Shown: piece after piece, positions 41,476 through 49,110 of the stretch
Numbering within the stretch: position 1 is the stretch's first letter
How the letters are laid out: each line of letters starts with the position of its first letter
NCBI GenBank assembly: GCA_041690595.1
Contig: JAWLHB010000014.1
Location: forward strand, 62,001-126,000
Source: Lentisphaeria bacterium
GTDB taxonomy: Bacteria; Verrucomicrobiota; Lentisphaeria; JABSQK01; JAWLHB01
Direction of reading: 5' to 3'
Length of the DNA: 64,000 nt
Translations under genes and position numbers: made by a program
The notes under the pieces: model-generated
Told to the model about the DNA's origin: nothing
Seen by the model: only the letters and a program-made list of their open reading frames with translations
Databases searched by the model: none

Positions 41476-42504
41476 TCACTGCTCCAGCAATGGAAGCACC
41501 ACCGATGGTACGATCTTCACCCGTCGCCGCTCACCGCTCTCCACGGCCTCCGTTACGGCCGACGCGAATTCCTCCTCGCGATGATCCAGCGACGCGATCC
41601 CGAAATAGTTTGACCACGGCGTATTGCCGACGCCGATGGCATCGAAGTCCCTCCCCAGAATCAGCCCCTCCTGCGCGGCGCACTTCCCGACTTTGCCATA
41701 CTGATAGTCAACGGTGCAGAAAACCCCGTCTGGCGGCTCATCGCCGGCGAACTCCCGCATGAAGTCGGTCTCCGCGTCCGTTCCCTCGAAATACCGCCTC
41801 ACCGCCAGCCCTTCCCCAGCCAGCTCCGCTTCAAACCCCGTCAACAGATGATCCGACGTCCACCCCGGTTCGCGTGCATACGATACCGTGACGATCCGCT
41901 TCCTCCCCCGCGACAGCAGGTACCCCGCCGCACGACGCCCCGCCTCGACGAAATCTTCCAGTATGTAAGAGGCCATGTACTCCTTCGCACCTTCAAAATG
42001 GGTCACCAGCACCAGATGCGTCTCCGGCTGCACGTACTCCAGAAGATCGAAGTTGAAGCGGCAGTAGCCAGCCACCACGAACGCCCGCGGACGCTCCGCA
42101 AGCAGCGACTTGATGTTCCCGATCGTCGACGCCTCATGCGAATGAGCCGTATCGAAAAGATACGGGATGAAACCCTTCTGCTGCAACGACGACGTCAAGG
42201 TGATCGGGATGCGGCGATGTTTGTCTGTCGTCCCATCCAGCATCAGCAGCACCGTCCGCGAGGCTATTGACTTCCCCGCCGCCGCAATGAAGGTCCCACG
42301 CCCCACATGCGACTCCAGCAAACCTTCCCGCTCCAGAATCGCGAAGGAACGCTGAACAACCTGCTTACTCACCTCAAAGCGTGCCGCCAGCGTCCGCGCC
42401 GGCTGCAACCGATCCCCAGGCTGCAAACGCCTCGCTTGAATCTCTTCCCGCAACAGGTCCGCGACCTGTATCGATTTCGGCGGCGCCGTCACGATCTTGT
42501 CCAC
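41476..42504 (-). CDS. GntR-family regulator with LacI-type sugar-binding domain
   Basis: LQPGDRL..R.LA..FEVS...LEREGLL...GRGTFI wHTH; PDGVFC. GTG start with AAGGAG RBS. Confidence 0.9.
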   Translation of the reverse strand: MDKIVTAPPKSIQVADLLREEIQARRLQPGDRLQPARTLAARFEVSKQVVQRSFAILEREGLLESHVGRGTFIAAAGKSIASRTVLLMLDGTTDKHRRIPITLTSSLQQKGFIPYLFDTAHSHEASTIGNIKSLLAERPRAFVVAGYCRFNFDLLEYVQPETHLVLVTHFEGAKEYMASYILEDFVEAGRRAAGYLLSRGRKRIVTVSYAREPGWTSDHLLTGFEAELAGEGLAVRRYFEGTDAETDFMREFAGDEPPDGVFCTVDYQYGKVGKCAAQEGLILGRDFDAIGVGNTPWSNYFGIASLDHREEEFASAVTEAVESGERRRVKIVPSVVLPLLEQ

Positions 42505-42535
42505 GCTCTTTCGCTCCTTTGGAACTGATTGATTT

Positions 42536-42573
42536 ACCATGGACCAATGCATTCCAATTGTCAAGAATTCCTT
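42536..42573 (-). promoter_or_regulatory. Sigma70 promoter and candidate operator of the gntR-lyase operon
   Basis: TTGACA-17 bp-CATGGT; spacer contains GGAATGCATTG; extra AAGGAAT upstream. Confidence 0.55.
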
Positions 42574-42644
42574 TTGCGTTTTGACCAAAAGCAGATCCGC
42601 CTCTCCTGCCAGCCTCAGCGGACGGTTTACCACGCCGATTCGAT

Positions 42645-42678
42645 TTGAATTCAGGGGCGACTGAGGGTATCTTCAGTC
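42645..42678 (+). promoter_or_regulatory. Sigma70 promoter with overlapping TetR-type operator
   Basis: TTGAAT-17 bp-TATCTT; palindrome GACTGA-N8-TCAGTC (42659-42678) covers the -10. Confidence 0.6.
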
Positions 42679-42710
42679 ATTGAGGGACGATTCAACCAGG
42701 AGTCGAAATC

Positions 42711-43778
42711 ATGATCAGTCATTCCGCGACCGCTTCCACCGACCACCATGTCGTCAATGTGCCTTCCCGTCGTCAGGCCATCCGCCAAGTGGCGCGTAAG
42801 CTCTTCTGCCAACAGGGCTACCCGGCCACCAGCATCGACCAGATTGCGCGCGCGGCCGGTCTCTCGGTCGGGTCCATCTACAATATCGTCGGCAACAAGG
42901 ATCAACTCTACGGCCGTATCGCCAAAGACATCGGCCACGAACTCCTCGATTATCTGCGTCAGGACGTCGTGCCCTTGAAGAATGCGGAACAGGCCATCGC
43001 CAAGCTGGTGCGCCATCGCCTCCAGCACCACCCCGAACACCGCCTCTTTCTCGTCCTCTTCTCCAACGAGCGCAGCTCAGGCGTCTATCCCTCCCCTGAA
43101 CAGGTCGAGGAGACCCTGCCCGACCTCTATCGCACCTATCTCCAGGAGGTGGGCGACTTCCTCGCACGCTACGCCACCGAAAAGATGCCGCCCCTCCACC
43201 TCGCCCTTACCTTCGAAGGCATGATCTCCGCTTTTGCGGCCTATCTCCGCGACTCGATCAAGGGCGAAGGACTCACCGGTCAAACCCAGTACATCACCTC
43301 GATGTTCCTGCGGCTCGCCCGCTCCGCGCCACCGCTGGCAACGGACGAAGCGGGAAGTCCGGCCACGGATCGATGTGTCTATGTCAGCCGCTTCGACTAC
43401 GATCGCCTCCACGAGCTGGTCGAGGTCGCTCGCGTCTTCGGCTCCCACGAGCAGCACGAGTATCTCGTCCAACTCACCAACACCCTGCAGAGCGGAAAGA
43501 TCGTCGATCCCCACGTCGTCCCGCCCGATGTGGTTACCATGAATTCCCGTTTTACCCTTGCAGACGAAGAACTGGGTGCCATGGTGACATGTACACTCGT
43601 CTTCCCCACCGACTCCGACAACAACTCCAAAATCTCGGTACTCAGTCCTCTCGGAGCAATGGTGCTGGGAGCGCGCCCGGGCGATCAATTGATTGTGCCG
43701 ACCGACAAAACGGTGCGTCGCTTTACACTCCTCGAGCTGCTCTATCAGCCCGAATCCGCAGGCGACTACCATCTCTAA
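42711..43778 (+). CDS. TetR-family regulator fused to a complete Rnk (Gre-like) domain
   Basis: N-term ARKLFCQQGYPATSIDQIARAAGLSVGSIY HTH; C-term DYDRL..VPPDVVTMNS..TLVFP..ISVLSPLG..LG..YQPESAGDYHL. Confidence 0.85.
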   Translation: MISHSATASTDHHVVNVPSRRQAIRQVARKLFCQQGYPATSIDQIARAAGLSVGSIYNIVGNKDQLYGRIAKDIGHELLDYLRQDVVPLKNAEQAIAKLVRHRLQHHPEHRLFLVLFSNERSSGVYPSPEQVEETLPDLYRTYLQEVGDFLARYATEKMPPLHLALTFEGMISAFAAYLRDSIKGEGLTGQTQYITSMFLRLARSAPPLATDEAGSPATDRCVYVSRFDYDRLHELVEVARVFGSHEQHEYLVQLTNTLQSGKIVDPHVVPPDVVTMNSRFTLADEELGAMVTCTLVFPTDSDNNSKISVLSPLGAMVLGARPGDQLIVPTDKTVRRFTLLELLYQPESAGDYHL

Positions 43779-43803
43779 TCGTAACCCTACCCGAGGTGCT
43801 GAC

Positions 43804-44211
43804 ATGAAGCAGCCTGCCCTGATTATTTCCGCCGTGGACGCGAAACGCCTCCGCGACTTCATCGACGATCAACGCTATGCGGCGGATGCCGGCATGGACG
43901 CGCTGCTCAACCGGCTCGAAGCCGAGATCGAAAAAGCCAAGACCATGCCCGTCGAACGCGTGCCCGCCGATGCCGTGACCATGAACTCCGCCGTCGAAGT
44001 CGTCGATCAGGATACCGGCGAAGTCATCGCCTTCGAGCTGGTTTGGCCGGATGAAGCCGACGCGGATGAGAACCGCATCTCCGTCCTGGCACCCCTTGGC
44101 ATGGCCGTTCTGGGCTATCGTGAAGGCGCCACCGTCGAGTGGCCCGTTCCCGTCGGCACCCGCAGGCTGCTCATCCAGCGCGTCGGCGTCGACACCCCAA
44201 CCCGCAACTAA
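43804..44211 (+). CDS. rnk: Nucleoside diphosphate kinase regulator Rnk
   Basis: DAKRL, VPADAVTMNS, LVWP.EAD and ISVLAPLGMAVLGYREG..W motifs; GAGG RBS. Confidence 0.9.
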   Translation: MKQPALIISAVDAKRLRDFIDDQRYAADAGMDALLNRLEAEIEKAKTMPVERVPADAVTMNSAVEVVDQDTGEVIAFELVWPDEADADENRISVLAPLGMAVLGYREGATVEWPVPVGTRRLLIQRVGVDTPTRN

Positions 44212-44230
44212 CGTTCGCGACGCACCTTCC

Positions 44231-44270
44231 AGAGGCGGCACCAGGAACCCCCGGTGCCGCCTCTTTCATT
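44231..44270 (+). terminator. Intrinsic terminator after rnk
   Basis: 12-bp stem AGAGGCGGCACC / GGTGCCGCCTCT followed by TTCATT. Confidence 0.8.
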
Positions 44271-44336
44271 CTCCGGAACTGCACCGACCCCGTCTGCCCC
44301 CGTCCGACGCCGCGCGCGAATTCCCCCATCTCCCCA

Positions 44337-44380
44337 TTGTAAGGAATGTATTGCCTGCTATGGTAGTCGGCGTATTCCTT
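44337..44380 (+). promoter_or_regulatory. Sigma70 promoter and candidate operator of the large CBM9/NHL gene
   Basis: TTGTAA-16 bp-TATGGT with TGn extension; GGAATGTATTG in the spacer; AAGGAAT / ATTCCTT inverted pair. Confidence 0.5.
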
Positions 44381-44451
44381 GCCGCCCCATCCCCTCACAT
44401 CTCTCGTCGGTCATAGTGCCGGCAAGTCCGACCACCACTACGCTGGATGTC

Positions 44452-47400
44452 ATGATGATGACCTCTGCCACCACTGCCCGCCTGTTTGCCTTGCTGGCCG
44501 CGCTCCCCTGCCTCGCCCCATTCTCCCATGCAGCGTCCATCCAGAGCGGCAATGCCCTCGCCTCTTCCTTTGCCTCGCGGGCCATCGCCATCGACGGCCG
44601 CTTCGAAGATTGGCCCGAGGTCAACTCCTCGCGTCTGGCACCCTTCAGCGAAATCTCGGGGAAGGCCGATCCTGCCATGGCGCGGGTCTTCAGCCAGTAC
44701 CCCAACCTCATCGGCAGCGCGGCAGAGATCTGGCTGGCCCATGACCACCAGGCCCTCTATGTCGGCATGCGCCTCAGCACCGCCACTCCCACCAACAACG
44801 CCCCCAATCCCGCGGAATGGTACTCCGGCGGCGACGGAATCATCCTGCACGCCACCGACCCGGACGGACGCTCCTTCTCGCTGCTCTGGTGGGGCTTCTC
44901 CCCGCACGGCGAAGCCCGCGTCTCCGTCCGTACCGGTGATGCGTGGCTGGAGCTTGGCGCCCTTCAGGGCTCGGCCGCCGCCCAAGCCGGCGCCGGTTGC
45001 GACCTCGAGATCACCATCCCATGGGCCAGCCTTGGCTGGACAGGTGAATCCCCGGCTCGACTCCAGCTCGTCTGGGAGGCAGCCTTCAACGGTATCGACC
45101 GCGACATCCTCAAGGCGCTCCCCCAGGAAATGCGCATCCACCTCGGCATGCACTCCACCTTCAACCTGCTCACTGCACCCTCCAAACTCGCCAGCCGCAA
45201 TTACCTTTCCCGCCCTCAGTGGTGGGGCACGCTGCGCTTCGCCGACGGCGAGGATAGCCCCGGCGACACCCAGGAAACGCTGACGGGGACCGGCATCGCC
45301 GAATGGAACGCCGCGCGCTCCACCTCCCCCATCACCATCGATGGCACCCTCGACGACTGGCCCGCCGACCGACTCCTCTCCGCTTCCCCGTCACCCTGGG
45401 CCTATGAAAACCGCTACCGCACAGACGTCGGCATCGCCTGGGACGATGACCACCTCTACCTCGCCTTCCGCTTCCACGACGGCGAGCCGATGTTCAATAC
45501 CGAAGTCGCCCAGAAGCAGATGGGATACCGCGGCGGCGACTGCATCCAGCTCCGCCTCAAGATGGGAGAGGCCGTCGCCAATCTCTGCGGCTGGTACGAT
45601 CTTCAAAACGCCATCCCCGCCCTGACTGCCGACGGCAAGGAGCGCCGCCAGCCGGACCTCCTCGCGGTCGGCGCCGCCGAAGCCTTCACCCCACTGCCCG
45701 GTGGACGCGGCTACATCCAGGAGATTGCCATTCCCTTCTCTCAGCTCCTGCCGAAAACACCCGCCGTCGGTGACAGCTGGAACGCCACCATCCAGCTCTG
45801 GTGGGCCGGCATCGACGAGCGCTTCTCCGTCGAAACCGCCGTCGACTTCGCACGCCCGGCGCCGCTGCGCACCACCTATGAGCTGCCCCGCGATGCCGAC
45901 GTCAGCCTCGGCCTCTACGACGCCCGTGGCAAGCTCCTTCGCCACCTGGTCAAGAACGAACCACGCAGCGCCGGACTCAATACCGAAAGCTGGGATGGTC
46001 TCGACCAATGGGGCACCCCAATCCCCGCCGGCAGCTATCTCCTCAAGGGGATACACCATGACCCCCTCCGCCTCGACTACCTGATGAGTGCCACCAACCC
46101 CGGCACGCCGCCATGGTGGACGGTCGACGGCAAAGGCGGCTGGCTCAGCGATCAGGCCGCTCCCCAGGATGTTGTCACTGACGGCCATACCGTCTACATC
46201 GCCGCCCCCTACGCCGAGGCCGGCCACGCCATTATCGCAGTGGGGCCTGACGGCAGGCGCATCTGGGGCATCAACCCCCACGTGGGCACCCCTCGCTGCA
46301 TCTCCCTCGCCCTCATGGGCGACCGACTCTATGCCGTCTTCAGCGGCCCCGAACTGACCGAGAGCGTCAATCAGTATGCCGACGGCGACAAGACCGCGAT
46401 AGGCCGGGCCATGCTCATGTGCTTCGATACCCGCACCGGCGAGCTCGCCGGCCCCAGCGTCAAGTCTGGCGCCCCCGTCAGGTTCACCACCTGGGACTAC
46501 CGCCACGACGTGCACAACCTCTGGGACCTGCGCCTCCAGCAGCGCTTCAGCCCCGCCACCTATGGCGGCATGCACCGGTACAGCAACTCCGGCATGTGCG
46601 AGACCACCAATGCCCTTGGCCTCGCCGCCGTCGGCACCACCCTCGTCGCCTCCATGTTCTACGACAACGAGCTGCTCCTGCTCGATCCAGAGACCGTCCA
46701 GATCACCGGCCGCATCCCCATCGAAGCGCCGGCCGGCCTGCACGGACTGGACGATCGTCACCTCCTCGCGGTCAGTGGCACACGCCTGGTCAAGGTCGCC
46801 ATCGATACCGGCGCCATCTCCCCCATCGTCACCGAAGGCCTGCTCGCCCCCTTCGGCGTGACCACCGACGCCAACGGCGATATCTACGTCAGCGACTGGG
46901 GAGCCTCCTTCCAGGTCAAGAAGTACCGCCCGGACGGCTCCTTTGTCGCGGCCATCGGCAAGCCCGGCGGCCGGCCGTGGATCGGTGACTTCACCCCCGA
47001 AGGCATGGCTCTTCCCCGCGGCATCGCCGTTACCGGCGACGGCAGGCTCTGGGTCGCCGAGGATGAGTTCTCCCCCCGCCGCGTCAGCGTCTGGGATGCC
47101 GCCAACGGCACCCTCATTCGCGACTACATCGGCCCCGCCAACTATCGCGGCTGGGGGCTCGTCGTCGATCCACTCAACCCGCGCCGCATTCTCACCTGCG
47201 GCACCGAATTCGAACTGAACGTCGACGAGAAAAGCTATACCCCCTTGCGCAAGCTCTTCCTGCGCCGAAGCCGCGAGGATCTCTTCACTCCCGATGGCAA
47301 CGGCATGGGCGCCTTCTCCAAAATCATCCACCGTAACGGTGAAGAGTTCCTGGTCCTCGGCAACCGCCACCAGCTCATCGTCACCCAGAAACGCGGCGAC

Positions 47401-49110
47401 GAATATCGTCCCGTTGCCGCCGTCAGCGGCTTCGAAGCCGCAAGTACTATCGACGGCACCCAGATGAAGTACTGGGACAGCGATCTGCGCTATCACTTCC
47501 TCCCCAACTGGTATCCCGACTTCTTCCGGGGACATGCCGGCCACAACTACATCTGGAACGACACCAGCGGTGATACCATTGCCCAGGAGCAGGAAATCTC
47601 CTGGCTCACCAACACCCTCCGCCGCGGCGATCTGCATGCCCCGGGCCGCATCGGCGAATGGGGCGCCGCATGGGGACTCGGCTTCGGCCCCAACTGGGAA
47701 GTCTACATCTCCGGTTTCTGCCGCGACGCCACCATCATCTACCGCCTCGATCCCGAGTTCACCCCCGAGGGCCTGCCGCGCTACTCCTTCGACAGATGCA
47801 CCCCCATCGTCACCCATCTCGATGCCGGTGTCAAGGTCCACAGCCTCTATGCATCCAGCAGCGGCAAGCTCTTCGTCACCTACTACAACGATGTCAACCG
47901 CGACGTCATTACCGATCACGCCATCGTCTGCTACGACCGCGACGGCAACCAGTTGTGGTCCATCGCCGGCCCCCGCGACACCGCCCCCAAGTCCATCTAC
48001 GGGTGCGTCAATGCCGAATTCTCCTATCCCCACTTGGGCAGCGGCGTCGTCACCTGGGTATGGTGGCACAACGGTCGCGCCTATCTGCTGACCGACGATG
48101 GCCTCTACCTGGCCGGATTCCTCGACAACGATGCCGCCATTGGCCCCACCTTCACCCGCCAGGGAGGCGAAACCTCCTCCTTCGCCAGCCAGGCCCCCGA
48201 CGGACGCCTCTACCTCATCAACGGCGCCAACTCCGCCCACCATTTCCTCGAAATCAAGGGGCTCGACACGGCCCGCCGTTTCGAGCAGGAACTGGTCATC
48301 AGCGAGGCGGACGAAGCAGCCATCGCCAGCGCCTCGCGGGACTCTGCCCTCGCCGCGCGCGAGCAACCGCTCCTCGTCATCCAGCACCTTGCCGCGCCTC
48401 CCGCCGCGGATAGCTGGCAGCTCGATGCCGAAGGCGTCCTCCTCACCACCTCCCGCAAGGGTGGACGAGGCGCCCGCATTGCCCTCAAGACCGATGGCCG
48501 TCTACTCTACCTGGCCGCCCGCGTCCGTGATGAAAGCCCCATGGTCAACCAAGGCGATAACTGGCAGATTCCCTTCCTCACCGGCGACTGCGTCGACCTC
48601 ATGCTCGCCATCGATCCTCAGGCCGATCCGCGGCGCCGCCAGGCAGCCGCAGGCGACGTGCGCGTACTCTTCACCGAGTTGCGCGGCGAACCCATGGCCG
48701 TCCTCTACCGGCCGGTCTCACCGGGCGCGAGCGAGCCCGTGCAGATGCTCGCCACCACCATCGACGAAGTCCGCCGCTTGCCCGAGTGCGAGGTTACCAT
48801 CCACCGCGACACCGACGGCTACACCCTCTTCGCTCAGCTTCCCCTCGCCAGCCTCGGCATCACCTCTCTCCCCGCCAGCCTGCGCGGTGACGTCGGCATC
48901 ATCTACAGCGATGCCACCGGACGCGACCGCGATCAACGCCTCTACTACTACAACGCCCACACCGCCATGGTCGCCGACCTCACCACCGAAGCCAGCCTGA
49001 CTCCCGACAAGTGGGGTGACATCCTCATCACCCTCCCTGACAATCGTCTCCGCAACCCCAGCTTCGAAGAGCCGCTCAAAAAAAAAGCCCCGCCGACGGC
49101 TGGACGGTAG
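44452..49110 (+). CDS. Large secreted protein: CBM9-like domains, FlgD-like Ig domain, NHL/beta-propeller repeats (first part of split gene)
   Basis: Signal peptide; IDGRFEDW and IDGTLDDW..WDDDHLYLAF; VSLGLYD.RGKLLRHL..WDGLD..G..PAGSY; P.G+..D..G.IYVSD repeats. Confidence 0.75.
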   Translation: MMMTSATTARLFALLAALPCLAPFSHAASIQSGNALASSFASRAIAIDGRFEDWPEVNSSRLAPFSEISGKADPAMARVFSQYPNLIGSAAEIWLAHDHQALYVGMRLSTATPTNNAPNPAEWYSGGDGIILHATDPDGRSFSLLWWGFSPHGEARVSVRTGDAWLELGALQGSAAAQAGAGCDLEITIPWASLGWTGESPARLQLVWEAAFNGIDRDILKALPQEMRIHLGMHSTFNLLTAPSKLASRNYLSRPQWWGTLRFADGEDSPGDTQETLTGTGIAEWNAARSTSPITIDGTLDDWPADRLLSASPSPWAYENRYRTDVGIAWDDDHLYLAFRFHDGEPMFNTEVAQKQMGYRGGDCIQLRLKMGEAVANLCGWYDLQNAIPALTADGKERRQPDLLAVGAAEAFTPLPGGRGYIQEIAIPFSQLLPKTPAVGDSWNATIQLWWAGIDERFSVETAVDFARPAPLRTTYELPRDADVSLGLYDARGKLLRHLVKNEPRSAGLNTESWDGLDQWGTPIPAGSYLLKGIHHDPLRLDYLMSATNPGTPPWWTVDGKGGWLSDQAAPQDVVTDGHTVYIAAPYAEAGHAIIAVGPDGRRIWGINPHVGTPRCISLALMGDRLYAVFSGPELTESVNQYADGDKTAIGRAMLMCFDTRTGELAGPSVKSGAPVRFTTWDYRHDVHNLWDLRLQQRFSPATYGGMHRYSNSGMCETTNALGLAAVGTTLVASMFYDNELLLLDPETVQITGRIPIEAPAGLHGLDDRHLLAVSGTRLVKVAIDTGAISPIVTEGLLAPFGVTTDANGDIYVSDWGASFQVKKYRPDGSFVAAIGKPGGRPWIGDFTPEGMALPRGIAVTGDGRLWVAEDEFSPRRVSVWDAANGTLIRDYIGPANYRGWGLVVDPLNPRRILTCGTEFELNVDEKSYTPLRKLFLRRSREDLFTPDGNGMGAFSKIIHRNGEEFLVLGNRHQLIVTQKRGDEYRPVAAVSGFEAASTIDGTQMKYWDSDLRYHFLPNWYPDFFRGHAGHNYIWNDTSGDTIAQEQEISWLTNTLRRGDLHAPGRIGEWGAAWGLGFGPNWEVYISGFCRDATIIYRLDPEFTPEGLPRYSFDRCTPIVTHLDAGVKVHSLYASSSGKLFVTYYNDVNRDVITDHAIVCYDRDGNQLWSIAGPRDTAPKSIYGCVNAEFSYPHLGSGVVTWVWWHNGRAYLLTDDGLYLAGFLDNDAAIGPTFTRQGGETSSFASQAPDGRLYLINGANSAHHFLEIKGLDTARRFEQELVISEADEAAIASASRDSALAAREQPLLVIQHLAAPPAADSWQLDAEGVLLTTSRKGGRGARIALKTDGRLLYLAARVRDESPMVNQGDNWQIPFLTGDCVDLMLAIDPQADPRRRQAAAGDVRVLFTELRGEPMAVLYRPVSPGASEPVQMLATTIDEVRRLPECEVTIHRDTDGYTLFAQLPLASLGITSLPASLRGDVGIIYSDATGRDRDQRLYYYNAHTAMVADLTTEASLTPDKWGDILITLPDNRLRNPSFEEPLKKKAPPTAGR

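Follow-up and report, generated by a model that had tools for sequence, protein, structure and literature searches.

A TetR-Rnk fusion gene and its free rnk partner in a putative two-gene operon of a Lentisphaeria bacterium

The Rnk protein of E. coli has been reported to bind RNA polymerase in competition with Gre factors and DksA. Its coiled coil is of insufficient length to reach the active centre, its deletion gives no phenotype, and its function is still unknown (PMC4598747). The Rnk proteins known so far consist of this module alone and have a length of about 136 aa. In the DNA analysed here (the window, 64,000 nt of contig JAWLHB010000014.1 from the Lentisphaeria assembly GCA_041690595.1), a Rnk module instead forms the C-terminal third of a TetR regulator, and this TetR-Rnk fusion gene is paired with a sequence-divergent free copy of rnk. 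What could a DNA-binding regulator do with such a module? By sequence comparison, the fusion is real and conserved; the operator-like pair in front of it is conserved and unique in its genome; and the free rnk, which is also conserved, has the same orientation and a putative terminator behind it. The reading favoured here, to which we give nearly an even chance, is that of a signal-released autorepressor of a two-gene operon, whose output would be its own Rnk modules acting on RNA polymerase.

The fusion protein and its family

A preliminary description of this locus had noted an uninterrupted 355-aa open reading frame (ORF) that joins a TetR part, a linker, and a Rnk module. No stop codon was found in the frame, whose composition was examined with Pfam, the Rnk model NF004396, and AlphaFold. 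The parts of the gene are as follows.

42698-42702, plus strand: ribosome-binding site of the fusion gene, AGGAG, 8 nt upstream of the ATG
42711-43778, plus strand: TetR-Rnk fusion gene (P0001), a single stop-free open frame of 355 aa
42759-43322, plus strand: TetR part, with the helix-turn-helix (HTH) at residues 24-68 and the all-helical core at residues 17-204
43323-43376, plus strand: flexible linker, residues 205-222, of low model confidence and variable in the family
43377-43775, plus strand: Rnk module, with the coiled coil at residues 227-243/246-261, the Gre-type beta domain at residues 280-345, and the tail at residues 345-355

Pfam analysis identified a TetR-type HTH (TetR_N, PF00440) at residues 24-68 (42.1 bits, cut-off 24, E 7e-11) and a GreA_GreB C-terminal domain (PF01272) at residues 271-343 (46.5 bits, cut-off 26.9, E 4e-12). 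The alignment with the NCBIfam Rnk model NF004396 takes in residues 223-354 and, on the model side, positions 7-136 of 137, and it covers the tail; therefore, the entire Rnk length is present in the fusion.

An AlphaFold model of the fusion, built on 35 family members, contains two well-folded halves (mean predicted local distance difference test score (pLDDT) 86; predicted template modelling score (pTM) 0.55). The pTM value fits two rigid halves that would have no fixed mutual orientation. The TetR body is all-helical at residues 17-204, mostly with pLDDT >90, and linker residues 207-219 are disordered (pLDDT <50). The Rnk module consists of helices 227-243 and 246-261, which form a coiled coil of about 17+16 residues, a beta-rich part at residues 280-345, and a small terminal helix. 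The model points to a short Rnk_N-type coiled coil, not the long GreA_GreB_N type, despite a Pfam Rnk_N match below its cut-off, and it gives the Rnk half of the fusion the full Rnk fold.

The top Foldseek match of the fusion was E. coli Rnk (3bmb_A), with a target template modelling (TM) score of 0.82 over 135 of 135 residues. It was followed by the Nitrosomonas homologue 2pn0, and then by numerous TetR regulators with unrelated ligands; the Gfh1 structure 2eul_A was also among the matches. The TetR part matched NalD, PvrA, AcrR, FadR, MtrR, and others (target TM 0.47-0.72, with many at 0.6-0.7). Like the fused module, 3bmb and 2pn0 combine a coiled coil of short length with a C-terminal domain of the Gre type and a YQPE..GDY tail. 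The sequence match of the fused module to these two proteins extends through the YQPE..GDY ending; therefore, the fused tail is the canonical Rnk C-terminus, and the tail-less free copy is the atypical one.

The search for this architecture across genomes, which the preliminary description had advised, was fruitful. A word-indexed protein search (E <= 0.001) returned 46 proteins including the query. Among the 45 non-self matches, 35 are full-length homologues (322-379 aa, 33-55% identity) that contain TetR_N together with GreA_GreB or Rnk_N. An exhaustive search over 1.84 billion representatives gave 26 proteins at E <= 1e-30, and both halves were covered in 28 of the 150 matches listed. Searches at the DNA level located full-length fusion loci in 11 of the best 80 genome matches and in 5 of the best 80 metagenome matches, hereafter the 16 related loci. 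The record titles of the fusion loci name Planctomycetota, Hydrogenedentota, Omnitrophota, and Lentisphaerae, as well as one metagenome-assembled genome labelled Bathyarchaeia. On the contig labelled Candidatus Bathyarchaeia archaeon (L010), the fusion gene is accompanied by a bacterial-type promoter and an operator pair; this contig is probably mis-binned. No full-length fusion match was found in a sample of 200 other genomes of the same phylum, and a match to the Rnk half only was found in eight. A genome of the same phylum (L175) has a 579-aa frame that matches Rnk, but this is no fusion; the frame extends from a neighbouring gene. Going by these sequence records, the fusion family is rare and patchy, and by record labels it reaches at least four phyla.

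The junction between the two halves (~43300-43380), where a chance join had to be considered, is bridged by low-depth contigs of a strain about 95% identical, from one sediment study. These contigs span 43241-43490 and 43243-43393 with substitutions only, without indel or stop. When the substitutions were applied to the window, the frame stayed open, with five residue changes, all at residues 209-219 in the linker. The same strain has 12 differences within 43 nt of linker-coding sequence (43328-43370), and its flanking domains are nearly unchanged.

Alignment A1 comprises the query and 34 of the 35 homologues (P0012 was excluded). In this alignment the region of the recognition helix hardly varies. 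Within the core, Y143 is the same in every row, and R103, F113, F117, E169, and G170 are nearly invariant. The first coiled-coil helix, the Gre-domain loop, and the tail are conserved, and the ending GD[YF]H[LR] is present in 34 of the 35 rows. The linker differs both in length (13-30 residues) and in sequence. The members are labelled in databases as 'TetR family transcriptional regulator', 'GreA/GreB family elongation factor', or 'regulator of nucleoside diphosphate kinase'. A literature search found no paper describing a TetR-Rnk or LysR-Rnk protein, subscription-only papers being out of reach. As far as searched, the TetR-Rnk architecture is catalogued in databases yet uncharacterised, in keeping with the preliminary description.

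Putative operator sites, promoter, and the free rnk gene

The fusion gene is preceded by two palindromes of the form TGA-N8-TCA and followed by the free rnk gene and a hairpin. The features of the unit outside the fusion gene are listed below.

42645-42650, plus strand: -35-like hexamer of a weak promoter (TTGAnn-N16-18-nAnnnT pattern), with a 17-nt spacer to the -10-like hexamer
42662-42675, either strand: operator site 1, a 14-bp TGA-N8-TCA palindrome
42668-42673, plus strand: -10-like hexamer, the best match, inside operator site 1
42681-42694, either strand: operator site 2, an exact TGA-N8-TCA, 19 bp start-to-start from site 1
43793-43798, plus strand: ribosome-binding site of the free rnk, GAGGTG, 5 nt upstream of the ATG
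43804-44211, plus strand: free Rnk paralogue (P0002), 135 aa, with Rnk_N and GreA_GreB and no tail
44231-44264, plus strand: terminator-like hairpin, a 12-bp stem followed by a T-rich run

An operator-like palindrome had been pointed out at 42659-42678. It is present, and corresponds to site 1 plus 3 nt on either side; its core is the first of two conserved sites. The upstream regions of the fusions (3,230 nt) contain 24 copies of the TGA-N8-TCA pattern, versus 25 copies in the other 143,250 nt of the loci, which is an enrichment of about 43-fold. It was found upstream of the fusion in 16 of 17 loci, and in all 17 once a mis-set start in L007 was corrected; at the corrected start, L007 has one exact site and one site with one mismatch. 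In 13 of the 17 loci there is a second site 18-19 bp away, in which no more than one of the six fixed letters is mismatched. The end of the -10 element falls between -1 and +3 nt relative to site 1 in 13 loci, or in 14 of the 17 when L007 is counted (+1 nt from its 1-mismatch first site). In this arrangement the operator sites cover the -10 element and +1 to about +26. As a phylogenetic footprint, the sites are the palindromic operator expected of the TetR family. They provide strong evidence that the TetR half, which presumably binds DNA here, represses its own operon. This operator footprint is new in the present analysis.

The same pattern was searched in whole genomes. In the own 8.1-Mb genome, 1,405 single TGA-N8-TCA matches were found, near the expectation from composition, and the sole pair at 18-20 bp spacing is the one at the promoter of the fusion. 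With an operator matrix trained on 20 sites from 13 other loci (the window, L007, L082, and L083 were left out), the window pair ranked first of eight candidate pairs (26.5 bits). The runner-up (C25:44036, 22.2 bits) lies within or at the edge of ORFs. The single-site scan gave 622 sites of at least 10 bits, among which the window sites rank 36 and 313. Of five other carrier genomes, four have the exact tandem pair at the promoter of their own fusion, and the fifth has a second site with one mismatch. The exact pair occurs at five further places in these genomes, against none for a reversed-pattern control; the four of these places that were inspected are all inside ORFs of at least 100 codons. 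The footprint lends no evidence for targets beyond the own operon.

The preliminary description had also credited the unit with its own promoter and terminator. The promoter claim holds at the matching place in the relatives, where near-consensus promoters are present; in the window itself the promoter is weak, with 8 of 12 consensus letters, and was missed by the consensus scanner. The only promoter-like match of this scanner, at 43799-43826 across the free rnk start, is at chance level (one found, 0.6 expected). The terminator was confirmed as a hairpin that begins 20 nt past the second stop codon. The 69-nt stretch folds with -32.3 kcal/mol (z -4.9), and none of 200 shuffles was as stable. 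The consensus scanner, which permits only shorter loops, did not report the hairpin.

A second, stand-alone and tail-less rnk had been described 25 nt downstream of the fusion, and this was corroborated: 25 nt separate the fusion stop from the free rnk start. In Pfam, the free Rnk scored 72.2 bits for GreA_GreB (cut-off 26.9) and 30.1 bits for Rnk_N. The window's free copy lacks the tail, since its NF004396 alignment covers just model positions 2-119 of 137. The free module has 31% identity to the fused one. Its structure model (pLDDT 88.5) is a confident Rnk fold with helices at residues 10-25 and 29-44, in which the last few residues are disordered. When residues 216-355 of the fusion (A1) were co-folded with the free Rnk (A2), the score was 0.00 against a mark of 0.32, a value that weighs neither for nor against binding.

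The tandem arrangement, whose conservation the preliminary description had proposed to check, is conserved. An immediately downstream free rnk on the same strand is present in 12 of the 16 related loci, or in 11 of 14 with two near-duplicates removed; the contig of L083 stops 385 nt past the fusion. Among the 12 free partners in alignment A2, eight have a tail of the YQPE or HQPE type, and none has the full ending of the fused module. The tail is missing in four, the window's copy among them. The missing tail of the window's free copy is thus not a family trait on these alignments. Conservation is higher in the fused module than in the free one, coiled coil included (A1 versus A2). Rnk modules of three kinds (15 fused, 12 free, 45 solo) were placed in a phylogenetic tree, in which the fused modules form a loose cluster and the free ones are scattered; 37 of the 69 inner branches are unresolved, and the order of events is unreadable.

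Proposed regulation and possible action of the Rnk modules

The favoured reading, a signal-released autorepressor, involves the following steps. The TetR half, presumably as a dimer or a pair of dimers, would bind the two TGA-N8-TCA sites over -10/+1 and shut the promoter off. The operators overlap -10/+1, where a bound repressor should exclude RNA polymerase. A signal sensed by the TetR core would free the repressor from the operator. Derepression would then raise both Rnk modules, one fused to the repressor (hence dimeric and DNA-capable), the other free and divergent. Both modules would be expected to dock on the secondary-channel rim of RNA polymerase, by analogy with E. coli Rnk, and so to compete with GreA and DksA-type factors throughout the cell.

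Candidate competitors of the Rnk modules are encoded in the own genome. Its only true GreA, which is also its only further Gre-domain gene, is of the long form, in a 780-codon frame (G000:C42, L165:456-2798, plus strand). In this frame an extension of about 600 residues without Pfam match precedes GreA_GreB_N (residues 627-686) and the C-terminal domain (residues 699-755). Two DksA/TraR-type zinc-finger matches were also found. In the carrier genomes G202 and G204, Gre-domain matches lie in frames of 937 and 876 codons.

TetR and QacR are autorepressors with paired operators. The fusion resembles them in its N-terminal HTH, helical core, and palindromic operator over its own promoter, and its two sites suggest two dimers. 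It differs from them in having no efflux or catabolic gene under its control, rnk being the sole conserved and presumably co-transcribed gene, and in carrying an additional module of 135 residues that would target the transcription machinery.

Among the Gre-family proteins, Rnk, Gfh1 (Thermus), and Rv3788 (Mycobacterium) may be anti-Gre or anti-DksA factors, and the latter two are proposed to displace Gre and DksA from RNA polymerase (PMC4598747). The coiled coils of Gfh1 and Rv3788 are of full length, extend to the active centre, and inhibit catalysis, and no DNA-binding domain is fused to these proteins. In contrast, the ~17+16-residue coil of the fusion would, by analogy, be too short to reach the active centre. 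The long-form GreA proteins (NF004969, NF011309) likewise have a Gre-family module at the C-terminal end of a larger protein. However, their coiled coil is still the long GreA_GreB_N type, no DNA-binding domain is recognised in them, and they act as cleavage factors instead of regulators.

Several points weigh against the autorepressor reading. The Rnk_N match of the fusion is weak (residues 223-242, 15 bits, cut-off 23.7). The fused module scored 85.4 bits with NF004396, below the curated equivalog cut-off of 109, and the free one scored 106.4 bits, also under it; on these scores, both are best filed as Rnk-like proteins, not as equivalogs of E. coli Rnk. The window promoter is weak, as described above. 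In three of the 14 non-redundant loci (L007, L008, and L010), no free rnk lies within 5 kb of the fusion. Among the genomes that lack an adjoining free rnk, one has an unlinked Rnk, and another has just a true GreA besides the fusion. Single operator sites are indistinguishable from chance in an 8-Mb genome, and a wider single-site regulon may exist. Finally, if the modules act purely in trans, the fusing of an effector to its repressor stays unexplained.

A tethered mode of action was put forward in the preliminary description. The operator-bound fusion would offer its Rnk module to the polymerase at the same promoter. There the module might hold, block, or poise the enzyme, or keep Gre factors away from it locally. 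A ligand would release the fusion, and free Rnk would compete. Consistent with this, the Rnk module is attached at the distal end of the TetR core by a flexible linker of 13-30 residues, and the fused module, coiled coil included, is better conserved than the free one. A LysR family that also has a C-terminal Rnk-like module with the same tail fits this reading as well. However, the sole paired operator found is at the own promoter, and the four inspected other pairs of the carrier genomes lie inside ORFs. The sites cover the -10 element and +1 to about +26, so that repressor and polymerase should exclude each other. There is also no conserved nearby target gene besides rnk. Tethering to operator DNA was not upheld on these grounds, and we consider it unlikely.

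It is rather unlikely, too, that the module is not directed to the polymerase at all. The protein would then be an ordinary autoregulated TetR repressor, whose extra domain binds another partner (e.g. nucleoside diphosphate kinase) or tunes the ligand response. The function of E. coli Rnk being unknown and its deletion being without phenotype (PMC4598747) would agree with such a role, as would the scores of both modules below the curated Rnk cut-off. Rnk is also fused to GNAT acetyltransferases and to a zinc ribbon, and may be a general protein-binding module. Nucleoside diphosphate kinase is the origin of the name Rnk, and the genome has one ndk gene; however, this gene is on contig C4, unlinked to the fusion operon. 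In addition, the module has kept the whole Rnk fold and a Gre-type domain with a conserved S-x-x-S-P-x-G loop region, which speaks against this reading.

A feedback through polymerase titration appears quite improbable. Here the fused Rnk would be the sensor rather than the effector: free secondary channels would pull the fusion off its operator, free Rnk would then be made and fill the channels, and the repressor would return to DNA. The TetR core might need no ligand in such a circuit. TetR-family proteins with protein partners are known, such as SlmA with FtsZ and AmtR with GlnK. Titration would explain the sole operator at the own promoter, the conserved presence of a free paralogue beside the fusion (in 11 of the 14 non-redundant loci), and the fusion of sensor and Rnk. 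It would also explain a free module that drifts while the fused one stays canonical: the fused tail is canonical in 34 of 35 rows, and the free tails are degenerate or absent, with the full ending in 0 of 12. However, the proposal is purely inferential. The conserved residues of the TetR core (Y143, R103, F113, F117, E169, G170) are those expected of a ligand pocket, and an adjoining free rnk is missing in 3 of the 14 non-redundant loci.

A chance fusion, frameshift, or assembly chimera has a practically negligible probability, given the 35 full-length homologues in at least four phyla by record labels, the independent low-depth contigs that bridge the junction with substitutions only, and the two well-folded halves of the AlphaFold model (mean pLDDT 86).

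On the autorepressor reading, nature would have provided a construct that links Rnk to a sensor and a DNA-binding domain, places it under tight autoregulation, and adds a second Rnk as its partner. Controlling Rnk levels is evidently worthwhile in the carriers. The operon yields predictions about an operator, an inducer, and rivalry between the two Rnk forms and with GreA. Its value would lie in a concrete regulatory setting for a polymerase-binding factor, polymerase binding by the present modules being suggested by analogy with E. coli Rnk.

Other Rnk fusions and neighbouring genes

An independent LysR-Rnk family was also identified (P0044, P0193-P0230), in which 35 of 40 matches contain all three domains, namely the LysR HTH, the substrate domain, and the Gre C-terminal domain. 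Some of the records are labelled Labilithrix. Like the TetR-Rnk fusion, these proteins are one-component DNA-binding regulators with a C-terminal Rnk-like module and a tail of the YQPEAAGD-HHL type; the scaffold differs, being a LysR HTH with a substrate domain. The tails of P0044 and P0213 are almost identical to TetR-Rnk tails. Two DNA-binding sensor families without relation to each other have thus gained the same module at the same end. This comparison of sequences suggests that Rnk is a recurrent add-on of DNA-bound regulators, and the parallel LysR-Rnk family suggests that the solution arose more than once.

It is possible, if doubtful, that TetR-Rnk and LysR-Rnk proteins represent an unrecognised class of transcription factors with their own docking module for the secondary-channel rim. 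If so, a factor of this class might act on polymerase from a specific DNA site, where it would hold or block the enzyme or shield it from Gre and DksA, or it might sense free channels and set the level of free Rnk. The class would also provide the first regulatory logic and an inducible handle for Rnk, for which no function has been established since 2008. Should the module bind polymerase with the protein on or near DNA, a site-specific regulator would have a new means of reaching the access route to the active centre.

Rnk modules were found in further contexts (P0039, P0144, P0068, P0157): fused to GNAT acetyltransferases, in tandem as Rnk-Rnk, and after a zinc ribbon. In the tandem Rnk-Rnk protein, the tail is present on the second copy only.

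All-against-all clustering of the ORFs in the loci revealed no conserved neighbour besides the free rnk, and the genes flanking the operon in the window are not common to the related loci. On the minus strand, the divergent gene at 41476-42633 encodes a GntR-type HTH fused to a sugar-sensor domain that resembles periplasmic binding proteins. The GTG listed as its start probably lies too far upstream; if this start is used, only 77 nt separate the gene from the fusion gene, and the operator region would be shared. On the plus strand, a 1,618-aa ORF at 44254-49110 has just FlgD-Ig and NHL-repeat matches. Its listed start overlaps the operon terminator; therefore, the true start is probably downstream, and a signal-peptide-like stretch lies about 65 codons into the frame.

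In three related loci, GFO/IDH/MocA oxidoreductases are encoded near the fusion. A membrane-protein gene of the DUF5698/DUF2179 type follows the fusion-rnk pair on the same strand in L002 (6730-7404), L003 (6738-7367), and L011 (7119-7913, plus strand), and is absent from the window. The copies in L002 and L011 were assigned by Pfam scan, and the copy in L003 by sequence clustering.

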